Shown here: piece after piece, positions 1,281 through 9,348 of the stretch
How the letters are laid out: every line of letters begins with the position of its first letter
Numbering within the stretch: the first letter of the stretch is position 1
Assembly (NCBI GenBank): GCA_024742665.1
Contig: JANSYA010000001.1
Span: 570,425 to 634,424, forward strand
DNA from: a bacterium
Lineage (GTDB): Bacteria > Spirochaetota > Leptospiria > Leptospirales > Leptonemataceae
Direction of reading: 5' to 3'
DNA length: 64,000 nt
Program-made: the position numbers and the translations under genes
The notes under the pieces: generated by a model
Database searches by the model: none
Told to the model about the DNA's origin: nothing
What the model saw: only the letters and a program-made list of their open reading frames with translations

Positions 1281-3746
1281 ATGCGCGGTCTTCTACAGAC
1301 ATGCGGCCGGAAGCTCAAGCGCATTGGCCTTGTGCTCGGGATCGCCTCGGCCGTCCTGCTGGCCTGCGCGAATTATTCAACGGAGCCGGGCTATCTGGGC
1401 TTTCTGCTCGCGGCCGGAGGCGACTCCGGGGCCGGCGGGGTTTCCGCAAATCCTGAATTTCAACTCTCCGTCAGCGTAACCGGGATTACAGGCGCGCCCA
1501 CCAATCTGATCGTCCAAAACAGCAACGGCGATACGCTGAGCTTCGGCGCGAACGGCGCTGCTACTTTTGCGACGGCGCTTGTTTCCGGCACGGCTTATTC
1601 GGTGACCATCGCCACTCTGCCCACCGGGCCGGCGCACGCCTGCTCTGTCAGCAGCGGCGTCGGTACGATGGCCGGGGACGTGACCGTAGCTGTGAGCTGT
1701 TCGACTTCCTCATTCGCCGTGCAGGCGGGTGTGAGTGGCCTGGTCGGTACGGTCGTGCTGCAAAACAACGCCGGCGACAATCTAACAGTCAGCGCGAACG
1801 GCACCGCGACGTTCGCGACGGCGCTTGCGGACCTGAGCGCGTACGCCGTGACGGTGCTCACGCAGCCGGCCACGCAAACCTGCGCTGTCAGCGGCGGCGA
1901 CAACGCGGACGGCACCGGTACGATCTCATCGATGAACGAAAGCGTCACCGTAACCTGCGTGACGAATACCTATACAGTGTCCGCCGCTGTGAGCGGTCTG
2001 GTCGGCACGATCGTACTGCAAAACAACGCCGGCGATAATTTAACGATTAACGCGAATGGCACCGCGACTTTCGCGACGCCGATCAACGACGCGACAAATT
2101 ACGCGGTCACGATTTTAACCCAGCCGGCGACGCAAACCTGCGCGGTCTCCGGCGGTGACAATGCGGATGGCACCGGCACAATTTCTTCGATGAACGAAAG
2201 CGTGACCGTGACCTGCGTTACGAATACTTATACGGTCACCGCCAACGTCTCGGGGCTGACCGGCACGCTGGTGCTGCGTAACAACGGCGGCGATAATCTC
2301 ACGGTCACCGCGAATGGCTCGCATGTTTTCGCGACCGCCATTAACGACGGCACCGGATATGCGGTGTCGGTATTTACGCAGCCGACCAACCATACCTGCG
2401 TCGTAACCGGCGGCGACAATGCGCTGGGCGCGGGCACGATCTCTTCGATGAACGAGAGCGTTACGGTCACCTGCGCGCAGACCGCGTTTGTGGTGTCGGC
2501 CACGGTGACGGGTCTGGTGGGCACGCTGGTCTTGCAAAATAACGGCGGCGACAATTTGACGATCACGGCCGACGGCTCGCATAGCTTCGCGACCACTCTC
2601 GCGAACGCCGCGACTTACGCCGTGACTGTATTGAGCAGACCTTCCGCTCAGGTTTGCACGGTTACCGGCGGCGACGACGCGGCGGGCGGCGGCACGATCT
2701 CCTCGATGAACGAGTCGGTGACGGTTACATGTGTGACCACCGCGCCTTCACCGCTCACGAATGTGCAGAGCGGCTCGATCACGATGAGCTCGGCCACGCA
2801 GAACGTGGCCGTAACGCCGGTGGTCATGAGCCGCTCGTTCGTCGTCTGTTATGTTCGTACAAGCGAATCATCCGCGTATTATCAACCGAGCTGTCAGCTC
2901 TCGGCCACGAACCAGGTGACCATTCAGTCGAATCAGGCGCTCGCAACCGCCGTTGTGCAGTGGTATCTGGTGGAATTTACATCGGGCGTGAGTGTACAGC
3001 GCGGTTCGACCACTCTCGCGGGCGGTTCCAGCACTTCGAACGTGACAATCGCGAGCTCGGCGGTCAATAAGTCTTTCGTTGTTTCGACGACGCGTATCAA
3101 CTTGAACAGTACCGGCGCCGATGAACAGCGCACCGTGCGTGCTCGGCTTACCTCCGCGACCAATCTGGAGCTTTCCCGTAACGAAAACACGAACGCCGTA
3201 GTCGTCGAGTGGCAGGTCGTCTATATGGATGCGGCCTTCGTGCAGTCCGGAATTTCGACGATCGCCGGGGGCAGCGGTTCGGCCACAGTCAGTCTGCCGA
3301 CGTCGGTTGATTTGAGCCGGACTTTCGTTCTCACGAATGTTCGGGTAGATGCTGCCAGCAATGGCGGCGATGACGACTACTTTGTCCGGGCCACTCTGTC
3401 CGGAACCAATACTCTGAACTTAAATCGCTTCGCCAGCGCGAGCGCATCGGTGGAGGTCGCGTATTTCGTGGTGGAGATGACCGACGGCAGCTCGGTCCAG
3501 GCGGGCGCCGTGACCACGCCCTTTAATACGACGACTACTATGAGCGCGACGCTCTCGCCGGCCATCGTGCTCAGCCGCTCCGTGCCATTCTTCGGCATCT
3601 CAGTTGGATCGGCCAGCACCCTGCACGTGGATTCGGGATCGTTTACGCCGAATTTCACCAGCACGACCGGACTGCAGTTTACGCGTGTATCGGCCCAGAG
3701 CGTTTCCGCCGCCACTTACTACTACGTGGTTCAGTTTACGCCGTGA
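1281..3746 (+). CDS. Large tandem-repeat lipoprotein (hypothetical surface protein)
   Basis: 821-aa ORF. N-terminus MRGLLQTCGRKLKRIGLVLGIASAVLLAC has a basic n-region, hydrophobic core and lipobox-like LLAC. Five ~86-aa tandem repeats with two conserved Cys each (…VLQNN.GDNLT..ANG..FAT…Y.VT.LTQP…TC.VSGGDN..G.GTISSMNESVTVTC) precede a ~330-aa Ser/Thr/Val-rich C-terminal domain. Confidence 0.75.
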   Translation: MRGLLQTCGRKLKRIGLVLGIASAVLLACANYSTEPGYLGFLLAAGGDSGAGGVSANPEFQLSVSVTGITGAPTNLIVQNSNGDTLSFGANGAATFATALVSGTAYSVTIATLPTGPAHACSVSSGVGTMAGDVTVAVSCSTSSFAVQAGVSGLVGTVVLQNNAGDNLTVSANGTATFATALADLSAYAVTVLTQPATQTCAVSGGDNADGTGTISSMNESVTVTCVTNTYTVSAAVSGLVGTIVLQNNAGDNLTINANGTATFATPINDATNYAVTILTQPATQTCAVSGGDNADGTGTISSMNESVTVTCVTNTYTVTANVSGLTGTLVLRNNGGDNLTVTANGSHVFATAINDGTGYAVSVFTQPTNHTCVVTGGDNALGAGTISSMNESVTVTCAQTAFVVSATVTGLVGTLVLQNNGGDNLTITADGSHSFATTLANAATYAVTVLSRPSAQVCTVTGGDDAAGGGTISSMNESVTVTCVTTAPSPLTNVQSGSITMSSATQNVAVTPVVMSRSFVVCYVRTSESSAYYQPSCQLSATNQVTIQSNQALATAVVQWYLVEFTSGVSVQRGSTTLAGGSSTSNVTIASSAVNKSFVVSTTRINLNSTGADEQRTVRARLTSATNLELSRNENTNAVVVEWQVVYMDAAFVQSGISTIAGGSGSATVSLPTSVDLSRTFVLTNVRVDAASNGGDDDYFVRATLSGTNTLNLNRFASASASVEVAYFVVEMTDGSSVQAGAVTTPFNTTTTMSATLSPAIVLSRSVPFFGISVGSASTLHVDSGSFTPNFTSTTGLQFTRVSAQSVSAATYYYVVQFTP
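1470..2760. repeat. Tandem 258-bp (86-codon) coding repeats, ~5 copies, inside the lipoprotein gene
   Basis: Repeat units recognisable at about 1473, 1731, 1989, 2247 and 2505 (each begins gtgag(t/c)gg(c/t)ctggtcgg(t/c)acg). Copies are 80-90% identical at the protein level. Confidence 0.8.
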
Positions 3747-3816
3747 GCGGCGCGCAGCGCTGCGAAATATATAGAGCGCGCAGCGCTGTGCGATGCGAAT
3801 TCTGCGACGCGCCGAA

Positions 3817-3868
3817 TCACGCCAGCGCTAAGACGCTCTGATTTACGCCAGCGCTAAGACACTGTCGA
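3817..3868. repeat. Tandem duplication of the gltX 3' terminus (two copies of acgccagcgctaagac(g/a)ct)
   Basis: Copy 1 at 3819-3838 and copy 2 at 3845-3864. Both encode …SVLALA-stop on the minus strand. Copy 2 is the actual gltX end; copy 1 lies just downstream. Confidence 0.6.
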
Positions 3869-5489
3869 TGCGCCGCGCGACGGCCTCGTAGCCGAGCAGA
3901 GCGAAGAGCGTGGGCAGTTCGAGGCCCTGCATCGTTCCCGTGACGGCGATGCGGATCGGCATGAACAGGCCGCGGCCTTTCGCGCCGGTCTGTTCGCCTG
4001 CGGCTTTCATTAAGGCGGAGTACTCTTCGGCCTCGGTCGGCTTCTTTTCCAGACACAGATCCCGGAAGGCGGTGACGGCCTGCTTCGCAAGATCGTCGCC
4101 GATTAGCGCGCGGGCTTCGTCGCTTTCGACTTCGATGCTTTCGCGAAAGAGTTCGCGCACATAGGCCGGGAATTCATCGAGAGTGTCGAGATAGACCTTT
4201 ACCGATTCGAAGGTCTGCTTGATCTTCGATTCATTTTCGCCCGAGTCGAGCAGCTTCTTGATCTGCGCATCTTTTTCCAGAAAGACCAGCAGCTCCGGCC
4301 ACAGACGTTCGATGGGCAGGTCGCGAATATATTTATTGTTCAGCCAGTTGAGTTTCGACTTCTTGTTGATGAATTTTTCGAGTTCCTGACGGCTCAGCTT
4401 CGTGGGATCGAAGTCTTCGGGTTCGGCCGCGTCGGCGCCTGCGTCGTTCTTTTCGTCCGGCTGCTTTTGTTGATTTTTTCCACCCTTGCCGCCTTTCGCG
4501 TTTTTGTTGTTGCCTTTATCTTTTCTGCCTTTGTCGATCAAAAAGAAATCGAACATGGCCGGCGCCTTCGAGCACTGCGCGACGTCGAATTTTTTCGCCA
4601 GATCGTCTCCGGGCATGTACTCCACGCCGTCTTTCGGATACCAGCCGAGCAAAGCCATGTAGTTCGATACCGCTTCCGGTAAATAGCCCAGTTCGCGGAA
4701 AAATAGAACGCTCGCCGCCCCGCGTCGTTTCGAGAGCTTCTTTTTGTCGGAGCCTACGATTTCGGAAATGTGGCTGTAGGCCGGCAGCGGAAGATCCAGC
4801 GCTTCGTGAATCAGAATCTGGCGGGGGGTATTCGAAAGATGGCCCACGCCGCGCACGACGTGATTGATTTTCATTTCGGCGTCGTCGATGACCACGGCGA
4901 AGTTGTACGACGGAAAGCCGTTGGATTTTACGATAATAAAATCGCCGATCAGCCGCGAATCGAATTTTACGCGGCCCTGCACGGCGTCCTCGACTACGAT
5001 CTCGCGCGATTCGACGCGAAAACGGATTGCGAATTGTTCGCCGGCCGCTTTGCGTTCGGCGACTTCCTCTTCCGAAAGTCCGCGGCACTTGCCGTCGTAG
5101 ACATGGGGCAATCCCAGGGCTTTGGATTTCTCCTGCTTCGCGCCCAGTTCGGCGTCGGTGCAAAAGCAGGGGTAGGCCTGCTTCGCTTTCACCAGGCGCT
5201 CGACGTAGCCGTTGTACGTGGTCAGGCGCTCCGACTGGCGATAGGGGGTATACGGACCGCCGGCCAGTACGCCTTCGTCTTCGTTGATGCCCAGCCACTT
5301 CATGGAATCGAGAATCAGCACTTCGCTTTCTGCGCTGGAACGTTCCTGGTCGGTGTCTTCGACGCGTACGATAAACTGCCCGCCGGTCGCCTTCGCGTAC
5401 AGGTAGTTGAACAGGGCGGTGCGGGCGCCGCCGATGTGGAGATAGCCCGTGGGGGACGGGGCGAATCGGGTACGAACGGGATCGGTCAT
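3843..5489 (-). CDS. gltX: Glutamate--tRNA ligase (GluRS)
   Basis: 548-aa ORF with class I aaRS HIGH motif (PTGYLHIGGARTALFNY) and KMSKS-type KLSKR. Full catalytic plus anticodon-binding length. Contains a ~45-aa Lys/Gly-rich then acidic insert. Confidence 0.9.
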   Translation of the reverse strand: MTDPVRTRFAPSPTGYLHIGGARTALFNYLYAKATGGQFIVRVEDTDQERSSAESEVLILDSMKWLGINEDEGVLAGGPYTPYRQSERLTTYNGYVERLVKAKQAYPCFCTDAELGAKQEKSKALGLPHVYDGKCRGLSEEEVAERKAAGEQFAIRFRVESREIVVEDAVQGRVKFDSRLIGDFIIVKSNGFPSYNFAVVIDDAEMKINHVVRGVGHLSNTPRQILIHEALDLPLPAYSHISEIVGSDKKKLSKRRGAASVLFFRELGYLPEAVSNYMALLGWYPKDGVEYMPGDDLAKKFDVAQCSKAPAMFDFFLIDKGRKDKGNNKNAKGGKGGKNQQKQPDEKNDAGADAAEPEDFDPTKLSRQELEKFINKKSKLNWLNNKYIRDLPIERLWPELLVFLEKDAQIKKLLDSGENESKIKQTFESVKVYLDTLDEFPAYVRELFRESIEVESDEARALIGDDLAKQAVTAFRDLCLEKKPTEAEEYSALMKAAGEQTGAKGRGLFMPIRIAVTGTMQGLELPTLFALLGYEAVARRIDSVLALA

Positions 5490-5594: not shown

Positions 5595-6080
5595 CTAGTA
5601 CAGCTTCTGCATCCAGCGGGTCAGGCCGGCTTTGAAAACCTGGAGCACTACGGTATAGCTGCCGTTTTCTTCGGGATGGACCAACACGACTTTGCCTTCG
5701 GCCTCGACGAGACGGCGAATCTCCTCGCGGCCGTAGTATCCGATGCGCGAAGAAATAACGCGTTCGCTTTGCATGAGTTCCGTCGCGCGCTGCTTGCCCG
5801 AGTCTTCCCCGAGAATGCGGGCTTCGTCCCGGTCGCCTGCCAGCACGGTGACGTGAACCTGGTAGCTGTTGCTGGAGATCAAACCCTCCCGGCGATAGTG
5901 AGCGGGTAAAGTCGAGTCCGTCGGCAGTCCGCCGCCGCCTTCCAGTTCTACGAAGGGCGGCCGATCGCTGCGGGAATCATTCGCCTGACCGCTCAGGCAC
6001 GCCGTGACATTCCCGATCACCAGCAGGCACAGGCAGGCCAGGCTCAGGTTGCGGATCTTTCTGATCTGTGCGGGCCCCAA
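5595..6080 (-). CDS. Hypothetical lipoprotein
   Basis: In-frame TTG at 6080 gives MGPAQIRKIRNLSLACLCLLVIGNVTAC, a signal peptide with lipobox-like VTAC. The ORF track extends the frame to 6272. No recognisable domain. Confidence 0.45.
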   Translation of the reverse strand: MGPAQIRKIRNLSLACLCLLVIGNVTACLSGQANDSRSDRPPFVELEGGGGLPTDSTLPAHYRREGLISSNSYQVHVTVLAGDRDEARILGEDSGKQRATELMQSERVISSRIGYYGREEIRRLVEAEGKVVLVHPEENGSYTVVLQVFKAGLTRWMQKLY

Positions 6081-6082
6081 CT

Positions 6083-6799
6083 TCAATATCCCGGCGTTTG
6101 CAGGAGCGGAGCCGTTGCGTCCCCGGGGGGGTTGGCTGGATTGTCTTCTGGCGACTCGCGTTGTATGCGCCACTGTCTCTGGTTCTCCGGTTGGAAGGTC
6201 AGGCGTACCGCACGGATTTCCGCCGGCAGATCCCGGTCGCCCGCGCTTTCGATGCGAAAGACGACCGAACAAGCGTCCCGGCTACGATTTTCCTGTAAAG
6301 CAATGAATCCCCGATTCAGCAGGGCGCGGAAATCGACTTCCGCTCGAATCAAATCCCGGGGCGTGAATGCAAAGGGATAGTCCCGATCGAAGGTCGCCGA
6401 CCCCAGCTCCAGTTCGGTGGGTTGATTCGAGATAAGATCCAGGCGGGTGTGCAGCATAACCCGCAGGCTGCGTTCACGGGCCACGCGTTCCGCGGCGCTC
6501 AGGCAGAGTCGGCGACCGCCCTCGGTGCCCCGGGAGGTTTCGTTTACGCCGGTCGATCCGATGGTTTGCAAAACGTGTTTTGAAAGAAAGCCTTCGTCCT
6601 GGAAATTGTAGGTGACGTGGCGTTTTTCCAGAAAGCGGGACGGCTGGCAGCCGGAGGCCGTCGTCGCTGTCATCGCGACCAAACAGACGAACGCGACGCG
6701 CGGAAGCACAGGACGAGACCCGGCGGCGGCTCGTCGATCGCGGTGTTGAGCGCTCGTCAGATTCTCTGCGGCGGCGGTCTCAAATTTCACGCGGAGCAT
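6083..6799 (-). CDS. Hypothetical lipoprotein
   Basis: 238-aa ORF with signal peptide …PRVAFVCLVAMTATTASGC (lipobox-like ASGC). The start may be internal. Sits tandem with the next lipoprotein between rumA-like and gltX. Confidence 0.45.
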   Translation of the reverse strand: MLRVKFETAAAENLTSAQHRDRRAAAGSRPVLPRVAFVCLVAMTATTASGCQPSRFLEKRHVTYNFQDEGFLSKHVLQTIGSTGVNETSRGTEGGRRLCLSAAERVARERSLRVMLHTRLDLISNQPTELELGSATFDRDYPFAFTPRDLIRAEVDFRALLNRGFIALQENRSRDACSVVFRIESAGDRDLPAEIRAVRLTFQPENQRQWRIQRESPEDNPANPPGDATAPLLQTPGY

Positions 6800-6816: not shown

Positions 6817-8223
6817 TTAGCTTTCTCGCTCAAGAAGAATCAGCACTTCCAGGTGCGGCGTGCGCGGGAAAAAATCGAAGACTTCGACCGCCTGGGCAAC
6901 GTAGCCGCGCTCCAGGAATTTGCCCAGATCGCGGTTGAGAGTCGCGGGATTGCAGCTCGAGTACAGAATCGTGCCGACGCCGGCTTCGGCCAGCAGCGGG
7001 ATCTGCTTTTGATTCATGCCGGCCCGCGGGGGATTGATCAGGGCCAGGCCGGTACCGCGCGGCACCGGCACCGGCCGGCGATACAGGTCGGTGTTTTCGA
7101 AACGGCCTTCGTAGCCGCGGCGCTTGAAGTTGCCCCGGGCCGCCTTCAAGCCGGTCGGAGCATTATCGTAGCCCAGATAATCTCCAAGCAGATCGCGCAT
7201 ATTGCCGCCGAGCAGACCGCTGCCGCAGAAGAGTTCGAGCGTCGCCGGTCGAGCGCCGTCGCTTTCGGAATCTTTCGCGGCGGTCGGAGCGCCGCGGCTA
7301 TCGCGATCGCCAAGCATGCGCCGCGCGGCCTGCAGCCAATCGGAAAGTAAAAACTGATTCGCCTGGAAAAACGCGCCGCCCGGAATCGTCCAGGGCCGGC
7401 CGTCGACTTCGACGGGATCGTCCAGATCCAACTGCAATACGTGATGGCGCGGATTCGCCGAGCGCTTCGCCCGATCGTTGGCTTTCGTGTCGGCGCTGCC
7501 CGTCGTCGCGCTGGCGGCGCTTGCGCGTTCGTTCGGGCTTCCGTCGTCGCCCGTCGTCGCGGTTTCGTTCGCTGCGCTGTCGTCTTTTGCGCGAGCGTCA
7601 GAGTTTGCGTCGCTGGATGCGTTCGCTTCTGAGATCTCTTTTATTTCTTCAAGGATCGCCGCGTTCAAGTCGGGAGCGAGCTGGCGACAGCCCGCATCGC
7701 CGGGCAGTGGCACGATGCGATTGCTGTGCAGTTCGTAAAAGCCAGGCGGCGTGGTTTTCGTTTCACGATGCAGACGCGCCCGCGTGCGATAGCCGTTCGG
7801 CTCGCCGGAGTGCACCTGGAACTGATCGCGTTCGCGGGCGATGTCGATGCAGTTCTGCAAAGATTGAAACTCGGCGATCAGACGCAGCTTGAGTTCGACT
7901 TCGCTTTGATAATCGATGTGGCGAAACGAGCAGCCGCCGCAGCGGGGAAAGACCGCGCAGTCGGATTGCAATCGCTCCGGCGCCGGCTGCTCGACCTTTT
8001 CGACCAGTCCGAAGCAGTGGCGATTGTTCGAGCGGGTGACGCGGGCCTGCACGTCTTCGCCGGGCAGCGCGCCGTGTAAAAAGATGGGAAAGCCCTGTTT
8101 GTTTTCGCTTTCGGGACGGGGCGCGTCAAGATAGCCCAGGCAGAAACCCTGCTGGACCCACTTCTGCGCCCGGACGGACACAAGATCGCCGACTGCGGGG
8201 CCGGCGGATATTTCTTCGGACAT
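6817..8223 (-). CDS. rlmD: 23S rRNA (uracil-C5)-methyltransferase RlmD/RumA family (TRAM + Fe-S + SAM MTase)
   Basis: N-terminal TRAM-like region. Cys cluster FPRCGGCSFRH. MTase motifs LELFCGSGLLG and ILYSSCNPATL. A ~60-aa Ala/Ser/Asp-rich low-complexity insert is present. Confidence 0.75.
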   Translation of the reverse strand: MSEEISAGPAVGDLVSVRAQKWVQQGFCLGYLDAPRPESENKQGFPIFLHGALPGEDVQARVTRSNNRHCFGLVEKVEQPAPERLQSDCAVFPRCGGCSFRHIDYQSEVELKLRLIAEFQSLQNCIDIARERDQFQVHSGEPNGYRTRARLHRETKTTPPGFYELHSNRIVPLPGDAGCRQLAPDLNAAILEEIKEISEANASSDANSDARAKDDSAANETATTGDDGSPNERASAASATTGSADTKANDRAKRSANPRHHVLQLDLDDPVEVDGRPWTIPGGAFFQANQFLLSDWLQAARRMLGDRDSRGAPTAAKDSESDGARPATLELFCGSGLLGGNMRDLLGDYLGYDNAPTGLKAARGNFKRRGYEGRFENTDLYRRPVPVPRGTGLALINPPRAGMNQKQIPLLAEAGVGTILYSSCNPATLNRDLGKFLERGYVAQAVEVFDFFPRTPHLEVLILLERES

Positions 8224-8871: not shown

Positions 8872-9348
8872 ATGCAATGTCTGGGCATTACTCCAGTTGC
8901 AGGCGGTAGCATCATGTTCGACCTCAGCCAGCTCAACGATGGGATTCTCGACAACGGGGTCCTTGATTTTTCAGTGCGTTCTTATACGGATAACCGGCTG
9001 GTTTTAGTCGGCAGTTTCGATCTGGCGTACTACCAGGATATTCAAATTGAATTCGGCGGCGTGAGCTTTTTGTCCGTGCCGACCGAATTCTCCGACGCGT
9101 CGTTTCGATGTTTGCGCCGGGAGGAGTGCGGCGAATTGCTCGACTCGTTCTCGGACTATATGCAAGAAGACGATCGTGTTTTCGCGGTGGATCTATCGCG
9201 GTTCTACGACGTGCAAACCCACTACATCGTGGCGAATTCGATTCAGTACGCCTTCGGGAAAGTCTACTATTATCGACGCGACAAGCTGGAACCAGGCGAA
9301 AGCATCGCGCCCTGGGTGCTGGCGTCGCAGCCGCCGGTCACGGGCTAA
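8872..9348 (+). CDS. Hypothetical protein
   Basis: 158-aa ORF with no recognisable motifs. Probable start at the internal Met of MFDLSQL, near 8914. Confidence 0.3.
   Translation: MQCLGITPVAGGSIMFDLSQLNDGILDNGVLDFSVRSYTDNRLVLVGSFDLAYYQDIQIEFGGVSFLSVPTEFSDASFRCLRREECGELLDSFSDYMQEDDRVFAVDLSRFYDVQTHYIVANSIQYAFGKVYYYRRDKLEPGESIAPWVLASQPPVTG

Follow-up and report, generated by a model that had tools for sequence, protein, structure and literature searches.

The gene analysed here probably encodes a stalk-plus-head binding protein of the Leptospirales (Spirochaetota), an adhesin or a lectin that is lipid-anchored at its N-terminus, a reading that we hold with modest confidence. It lies in a stretch of 64,000 nucleotides of contig JANSYA010000001.1 (assembly GCA_024742665.1, positions 570,425 to 634,424; GC content 58.6%), the whole of which is called the window below. 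The sole long open reading frame (ORF) at this place is a complete coding sequence of 821 amino acids (1281..3746, plus strand, as are all features of the protein given below), identical to NCBI MCR9141099.1, 'MAG: hypothetical protein NXI24_02525 [bacterium]', encoded on a contig of 1.69 Mb, and the exact 821-residue protein is also present in the Logan assembly of SRR18498043. Stalk-plus-head binding proteins are a well-known kind, and both building blocks of this one belong to uncurated families without solved structures. The initial annotation had described an 821-residue lipoprotein with five 86-residue units, on which the ORF, the 258-bp repeat period and the protein alignment agree; it had not recognised that the C-terminal third, too, is built of repeats, nor its lectin-like and phage-tail-like affinity.

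The N-terminus (1281..1367) matches the PS51257 regular expression for type II (lipoprotein) signal peptides, {DERK}(6)-[LIVMFWSTAG](2)-[LIVMFYSTAGCQ]-[AGS]-C; the rule further requires the Cys to lie at positions 15-35 and a K or R among the first seven residues. The matching segment is LGIASAVLLAC (residues 19-29), accompanied by Arg2, which makes Cys29 the predicted lipidated residue and supports the lipoprotein call of the initial annotation. A positively charged n-region (R2, R10, K11, K13, R14) precedes the h-region IGLVLGIASAVLLA and the lipobox L-L-A-C, and cleavage by signal peptidase II (SPase II) and lipidation at Cys29 are what this predicted lipobox suggests. The corresponding lipoboxes of two orthologues, P0002 and P0004, read ITAC and VTHC, the latter atypical. 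The Cys is followed by a tether or linker (residues 30-56, 1368..1448) made of a conserved motif and a Gly/Ser/Ala-rich spacer. The motif, A-N-Y-STEP-G-Y-L-G-F-L in the window protein, conforms to C-[AG]-x-Y-x(4)-G-[YF]-[LF]-G-x-L (1365-1410, residues 29-44) and recurs in all eight Leptospirales lipoproteins with a four-unit head, whatever their stalk length (including P0002, P0004, P0122, P0133 and P0135-P0137); it may serve as a tether or a sorting signal. The mature protein (1368-3743) is also strongly depleted in lysine, with one Lys in 792 residues, which lies outside the stalk repeats; its pI is ~4.25. P0002 and P0004 likewise contain a single Lys each. This depletion may be linked to protease resistance or to the avoidance of isopeptide or other modification chemistry.

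The tether leads into the stalk, in which Tandem Repeats Finder detected a 258-bp period over 1740-2565 (score 808) and the protein alignment resolved five 86-residue units with two Cys each. These are R0, the divergent copy (residues 57-142, 1449..1706, Cys121/Cys140), R1 (residues 143-228, 1707..1964, Cys201/Cys226), R2 (residues 229-314, 1965..2222, Cys287/Cys312), R3 (residues 315-400, 2223..2480, Cys373/Cys398) and R4 (residues 401-486, 2481..2738, Cys459/Cys484). The two conserved Cys per repeat, already pointed out in the initial annotation, are present in all five units, and the four Cys of a repeat pair are invariant across an alignment of 32 such pairs. By contrast, the near-identity of 80-90% attributed to the repeats was an overestimate: among R1-R4, identity ranges over 62-81% for protein and 65-76% for DNA, the codon differences being split about evenly between synonymous and non-synonymous, and R0 stands apart from them at 40-44% identity. 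Exact DNA matches reach 20 nucleotides at most between adjacent units and no more than 12 nucleotides at greater offsets.

Sequence libraries offered no name for this repeat. Scans of Pfam-A with hmmscan returned no family for the whole protein at E<=1 or for single repeats at E<=10, with no match to the Big_2 (PF02368) or Cna_B (PF05738) hidden Markov models (HMMs), which bears out the remark that the repeat does not obviously match Big_2/Lig-type domains. NCBIfam gave nothing usable for the whole protein, single repeats or the head, and no PDB relative of the stalk repeat was found, the single-sequence search giving chance-level matches only and the profile search coming back empty. The repeat is nevertheless very common as a metagenomic tandem domain (4,299 hits); the top 117 proteins carry 8-15 copies each with a period of 83-86 residues. 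Most of these proteins belong to Myxococcota and Polyangia, and their label is 'large repetitive protein'. The repeat also weakly matches phrog_24736, a family of function not known (E 5.5e-8; window 1965-2160, residues 3-65 of the R2-R3 segment), and this CnaB-like repeat thus occurs in some phage proteins too.

The structure prediction proposed in the initial annotation was carried out for repeats and head alike. An AlphaFold2 model of R2 and R3 together reached a mean predicted local distance difference test score (pLDDT) of 96.1, and in this model each unit is a beta-sandwich of CnaB/prealbumin-like topology. The earlier suggestion of Ig-like modules therefore stands as far as the beta-sandwich is concerned, but not in the fold to which it is assigned. 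Among the structures listed with the model are PitA, the Streptococcus pyogenes T-antigen pilins, the Mobiluncus adhesin 5u6f, CnaB2 8bdw, the B repeats of SdrD and Cna, and the transthyretin-like domain of carboxypeptidase D. CnaB domains in Gram-positive adhesins form stalks that are stabilised by isopeptide bonds, and an intramolecular Lys-Asn/Asp isopeptide is found in many, although not all, of them. Since residues 57-486 contain no Lys, isopeptide staples are impossible in this stalk; the invariant Cys pair likely provides a disulfide staple for each unit instead.

The initial annotation had also taken the repeats to be recently homogenised or expanded and their copy number to be a likely source of strain-to-strain or phase variation. 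The orthologues indicate the opposite. In a single-protein scan, the genome collection yielded one relative, L002, a 'Leptospirales bacterium' metagenome-assembled genome (MAG) with a 6.44-Mb contig, showing 81% identity over the C-terminal part; its 815-residue ORF product (P0312) is 99.6% identical to P0002, an orthologue also of 815 residues and 80% identical to the window protein. A third lineage is represented by P0004 (822 residues, 69% identity), which was found in two runs. All these genes, and the frameshift-broken copy in L013 as well, share one setting, with a TPR-SpoIIE gene upstream and a convergent gltX. When the repeats were compared in a 15 x 15 matrix, every unit had its closest match at its own position in the orthologues, with 71-94% identity between same-position repeats (94% for R2 of the window protein and of P0002, 88% for R3 of the same two proteins, 71% for R4 of the window protein and of P0004) against 57-81% between different repeats of one protein. 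The array therefore predates these lineages and has evolved without homogenisation or concerted evolution.

Five units are found in all three orthologous lineages (69-80% identity) and in the two 99.6%-identical strain variants, so there is no basis for recent expansion or for copy-number phase variation; exact inter-repeat matches of at most 20 nucleotides would moreover be poor substrates for recombination or slippage. The same short matches, together with five units in independent assemblies (L002, and L008/L009 from two runs), make an artefact of repeat collapse or expansion, which the initial annotation had raised as a concern, unlikely. A fifth, error-rich assembly, L013, contains the end of R0 plus R1-R4. 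From the sequence comparisons we conclude that the five-copy array is old and stable. Stalk length is fixed among the orthologues of the window gene and varies among distant relatives, which have 0, 1 or 5 units. One of the latter is P0122 (L010, 201-1598), a 465-residue protein made of a lipobox, a single stalk repeat and a head. In L013 (European Nucleotide Archive ctg26435_2x_l), a low-coverage 2x long-read contig, frameshifts interrupt almost all genes, gltX, TPR-SpoIIE and the lipoprotein gene itself (P0313 + P0121) among them; short cluster members of this family can thus arise from sequencing errors and need not be true truncated alleles.

The C-terminal third, which the initial annotation had treated as a single distinct domain, turned out to consist of four homologous units of ~82 residues: U1 (residues 491-568, 2751..2984), a six-stranded beta unit with an extra Cys523/Cys538 pair that is kept in many family members; U2 (residues 569-650, 2985..3230), with an invariant V-Q-R-G at its start and an invariant W-Q-V at its end; U3 (residues 651-735, 3231..3485); and U4 (residues 736-821, 3486..3743), which ends at the C-terminus of the protein. 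The units begin with V-Q-x-G, end with W/Y-x-V-V-E/F and are 19-35% identical to each other, and their family profiles match one another in hhalign with probabilities of 99.0-99.5% and E-values of 1e-18 to 1e-23. Homology between the stalk repeats and the head units was considered and rejected (hhalign probability <1%). The AlphaFold2 model of the 335-residue head, built from a 33-sequence alignment, shows four times six strands (pLDDT 92.3, predicted template modelling score 0.92) and indicates a single compact all-beta module. Invariant residues of the head include R88, W158, Q159, R230, D249 and R316 in head numbering. In the models, single head units appear to resemble H-type lectins and the receptor-binding knobs of phage tail fibres and pyocins. 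Many of the structural neighbours of the head are phage tailspike, tail-fibre and pyocin knobs, among them the receptor-binding domain of the Pam1 tailspike 7eea (7.3), the R2 pyocin fibre 6cu2/6cl6 (6.7), K1 depolymerases and AP22 gp53 4mtm.

A word-indexed search retrieved only 50 relatives of the head. An exhaustive search with a profile made from alignment A1, with the window protein as seed, recovered 7,049 cluster representatives (at 50% identity) with E<=1e-3, of which 1,445 reach E<=1e-30. These homologues nearly always hold all four units and align over profile positions ~5-333. The family so defined is marked by V-Q-x-G where units begin and W/Y-x-V-x-E/F where they end, and the window protein matches it across all four units. 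No Pfam family covers the head region in the homologues, and a Pfam scan of the window head at E<=10 gave a spurious T6SS_Tgi2PP hit (E 0.04) and no match to the H_lectin HMM (PF09458). PHROGs v4 returned no match for the head or for seven stand-alone homologues, and PDB sequence and profile searches with the head stayed at chance level. Neither the libraries nor the literature searched contain a head of four units in one chain that phage tail proteins also carry.

The head also occurs in other proteins. It stands behind lipoprotein leaders in Leptospirales and Leptospira MAGs, where P0133, P0135, P0136 and P0137 consist of the head only, behind a type IV prepilin leader in the Patescibacteria protein P0165, after a pilin-like transmembrane segment in P0124, on a Por_Secre_tail cargo of the type IX secretion system (T9SS; P0187), and with the Peptidase_S74 tail-fibre chaperone domain in P0183; fn3, cadherin-like/Big_9 and FG-GAP domains also accompany it. 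The lipoprotein, prepilin, T9SS and tail-fibre contexts, and those with fn3, cadherin-like or FG-GAP domains, are all extracellular or tip-located. In addition, P0141 and P0146 are stand-alone, signal-less proteins of 349-365 residues that consist of the four-unit head only and are encoded in phage structural clusters. P0141 (10001-11050 in L005) follows, in L005-L007, the genes for a tape measure protein, a PHROG tail fibre, a BppU_N minor tail protein and a 684-residue protein, and P0146 (L003, 10001-11098) comes after portal and major head genes. The window head is ~30% identical to both over its full length (domain E-values of ~1e-34 to 1e-36). That the head is shared with phage tail proteins makes it probable that the window protein is a surface binding protein. 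H-type-lectin-like domains have been documented at the tips of type IVb pili (TcpB/CofB; PMC9565799), and a putative phage tail protein is reported to contain an H-type lectin domain (PMC3094311). The gene for P0133, a head-only lipoprotein of 398 residues (L011, 5001-6197; L012, 2758-3954), overlaps the 3' end of an NAD-dependent epimerase gene within a DegT aminotransferase/epimerase/GT2 glycosyltransferase/OmpA cluster, which hints at a tie between the head and envelope polysaccharide.

We propose that export through Sec and SPase II, with lipidation at Cys29, would leave the N-terminus anchored in a membrane. The short conserved tether would be followed by five tandem CnaB-type domains, each probably stapled by a disulfide, forming a fairly stiff stalk of an estimated ~15-20 nm, judged from typical domain lengths, with the compact 335-residue head carried at its distal, C-terminal end. 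The head would be the functional part and would most likely bind another surface through a ligand on it, probably a glycan, in the order anchor, stalk, binding tip. Lipidation, disulfide formation, outer-surface exposure, ligand binding and the nature of the ligand are what we infer, and the candidate surface adhesin of the initial annotation is plausible in its layout, whereas its copy-variable antigen is not. The lipobox, the invariant Cys pair, the head model, the inheritance of the head as a whole, its extracellular contexts and its phage homologues all argue for a binding protein, as do the sugar-biosynthesis cluster around P0133 and the documented H-type-lectin-like domains of pilus tips and phage tails. 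Several points weigh against it. To our knowledge, the sorting of spirochaete lipoproteins cannot be predicted from sequence, so that the protein may instead point into the periplasm. The whole four-unit head has no PDB match, and the arrangement of its units comes from an unvalidated model only. A Foldseek search of BFVD pointed to phage tail fibre and minor tail proteins with significant E-values, but with TM-scores of at most 0.32, a weak hint. Finally, the gene neighbourhood does not point to a function: the gene appears monocistronic, between regulatory/housekeeping genes and gltX.

The main rival, for which uncertain topology leaves room, is a structural lipoprotein that faces the periplasm, its stalk spanning this compartment and its head binding the cell's own peptidoglycan or envelope polysaccharide, as a tether or spacer and not as an adhesin to foreign surfaces. 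Disulfide-stapled domains would suit the oxidising periplasm equally well, the head-only P0133 is encoded in overlap with an epimerase gene of an envelope-polysaccharide cluster, and the window gene is conserved and syntenic beside housekeeping genes in several Leptospirales. We nevertheless consider this function unlikely: this head also comes with pilin-type leaders, in T9SS cargo and in proteins of phage tail clusters, all exposed outside the cell, five domains make a stalk longer, by our own estimate, than crossing the periplasm needs, and a number of stalk units that shifts between 0, 1 and 5 among paralogous relatives is typical of projecting adhesins.

Alternatively, the head could be a domesticated receptor-binding module of phages, with phage tail proteins as either its source or its recipients, that would recognise the surface glycans of other bacteria, be they kin, prey or partners in co-aggregation, or act as a decoy or shield against phage adsorption. 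Its ~30% full-length identity to P0141 and P0146, its phage and pyocin structural neighbours and the tail proteins matched in BFVD are what such an origin would predict. Yet the window gene is flanked by gltX and by tRNA methyltransferase, MarR and two-component genes rather than by a prophage or defence island, no PHROG matches the head, and the direction of transfer and the defence role are speculative; we judge the proposal improbable, and for the most part it falls under the adhesin or lectin reading. Least credible, to the point of being very nearly dismissed, is an array that has recently been expanded or homogenised and whose copy number varies by strain or phase to yield a variable surface antigen. 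Tandem 258-bp units in a surface-type protein invite the idea, and the distant relatives with 0 or 1 stalk units indicate that length does shift over long evolutionary time. Against it stand the DNA divergence between units with its abundant synonymous differences, the brevity of the exact matches at any offset, the positional orthology across three lineages, the equal length of the two strain variants, and the agreement of four full-length orthologues and one frameshift-fragmented assembly on five units.

Beyond the binding-protein reading itself, we tentatively suggest, with more doubt than conviction, that the head represents an undescribed family in which four diverged H-type-lectin-like beta-sandwiches are fused into a portable receptor-binding tip, exchanged between phage tail proteins on one side and, on the other, the lipoproteins, type IV pilin-like proteins and T9SS cargo of the bacterial surface, and mounted, in the Leptospirales, on a lysine-free, disulfide-stapled CnaB-like stalk.

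The closest parallels of the two parts lie in different systems. The stalk is alike in predicted fold to Gram-positive CnaB stalks, such as the Staphylococcus aureus Cna/SdrD B repeats, the Bacillus anthracis TIE protein 6fwv and the S. pyogenes T-antigen pilins, without sequence similarity to them. In MSCRAMMs (microbial surface components recognizing adhesive matrix molecules) and pilins, the staple is a Lys-Asn/Asp isopeptide, whereas here it would be a disulfide between the paired Cys. MSCRAMMs are held by a C-terminal LPXTG sortase link, while the window protein has a predicted N-terminal lipid anchor, so that polarity is reversed and the head is C-terminal; its host, moreover, is a diderm spirochaete. 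The head units may be alike in predicted fold to H-type lectins (Helix pomatia agglutinin, the C-terminal domain of discoidin I/II, SLL-2) and to the TcpB/CofB tips. Known H-type lectins assemble one unit into non-covalent trimers, whereas the window protein has four diverged units in a single chain, which are nearly always inherited together and have no H_lectin sequence match. The phage tailspike, tail-fibre and R-type pyocin knobs (7eea, 6cu2/6cl6, 4mtm) are likewise trimers, with one domain per chain, while the lipoprotein of the window is encoded on the chromosome, outside a phage context, and its head has no PHROG family. Nearer in taxonomy, Leptospira LigA and LigB, which are surface adhesins, are likewise spirochaete lipoproteins with long tandem arrays of ~85-90-residue beta-sandwich repeats and a C-terminal region that does not look repetitive. 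Unlike these Big_2 arrays, however, the window protein has no Big_2 match at any threshold, a predicted CnaB/prealbumin-like fold, units with a Cys pair and an unrelated C-terminal module.

The surroundings of the gene are ordinary. FA_hydroxylase, MarR, TPR-SpoIIE and two-component genes flank it together with gltX and a tRNA methyltransferase gene; the gene appears monocistronic and has no paralogue elsewhere in the 64-kb window. A prophage or defence-island setting was rejected, the neighbours being housekeeping or regulatory, and the gene is not encoded among phage structural genes. A scan for promoters and terminators gave chance-level, uninformative results. The intergenic region (3747..3842) that separates it from the convergent gltX (3843-5489, minus strand) contains a terminator-like GC-rich palindrome with an AT loop (3745-3790), common to the window and L002. 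Just downstream of this palindrome, a 26-nucleotide tandem duplication covers the last codons and the stop of gltX (…LALA*; 3806-3860) and is kept in three Leptospirales loci (the window, L002 at ~9060-9110 and L008 at ~7510-7560). Between gltX and the tRNA U5-methyltransferase gene lie two hypothetical proteins without Pfam domains (window 5595-6799; ORFs 5595..6272 and 6083..6799, minus strand; 163 and 238 residues as called in L001), whose position is conserved in L001, L008 and L013.

Neither domain family is covered by Pfam-A 2025, by NCBIfam 20, by a solved structure or, for the head, by PHROGs v4, and defining the head family of ~7,000 clusters would improve the annotation of many 'hypothetical' proteins. 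This family could also point to a glycan-recognition module common to phages and their hosts. The array itself illustrates that tandem repeats need not imply phase variation, its units being anciently diverged and positionally conserved. For the Leptospirales, the window protein adds a candidate adhesin architecture that is independent of Lig. If the tentative portable-tip proposal is true, this protein would be the equivalent, in a diderm, of the Gram-positive MSCRAMM adhesins, with a lipid anchor, reversed polarity and a head that acts as a 'pseudo-oligomer in one chain'.

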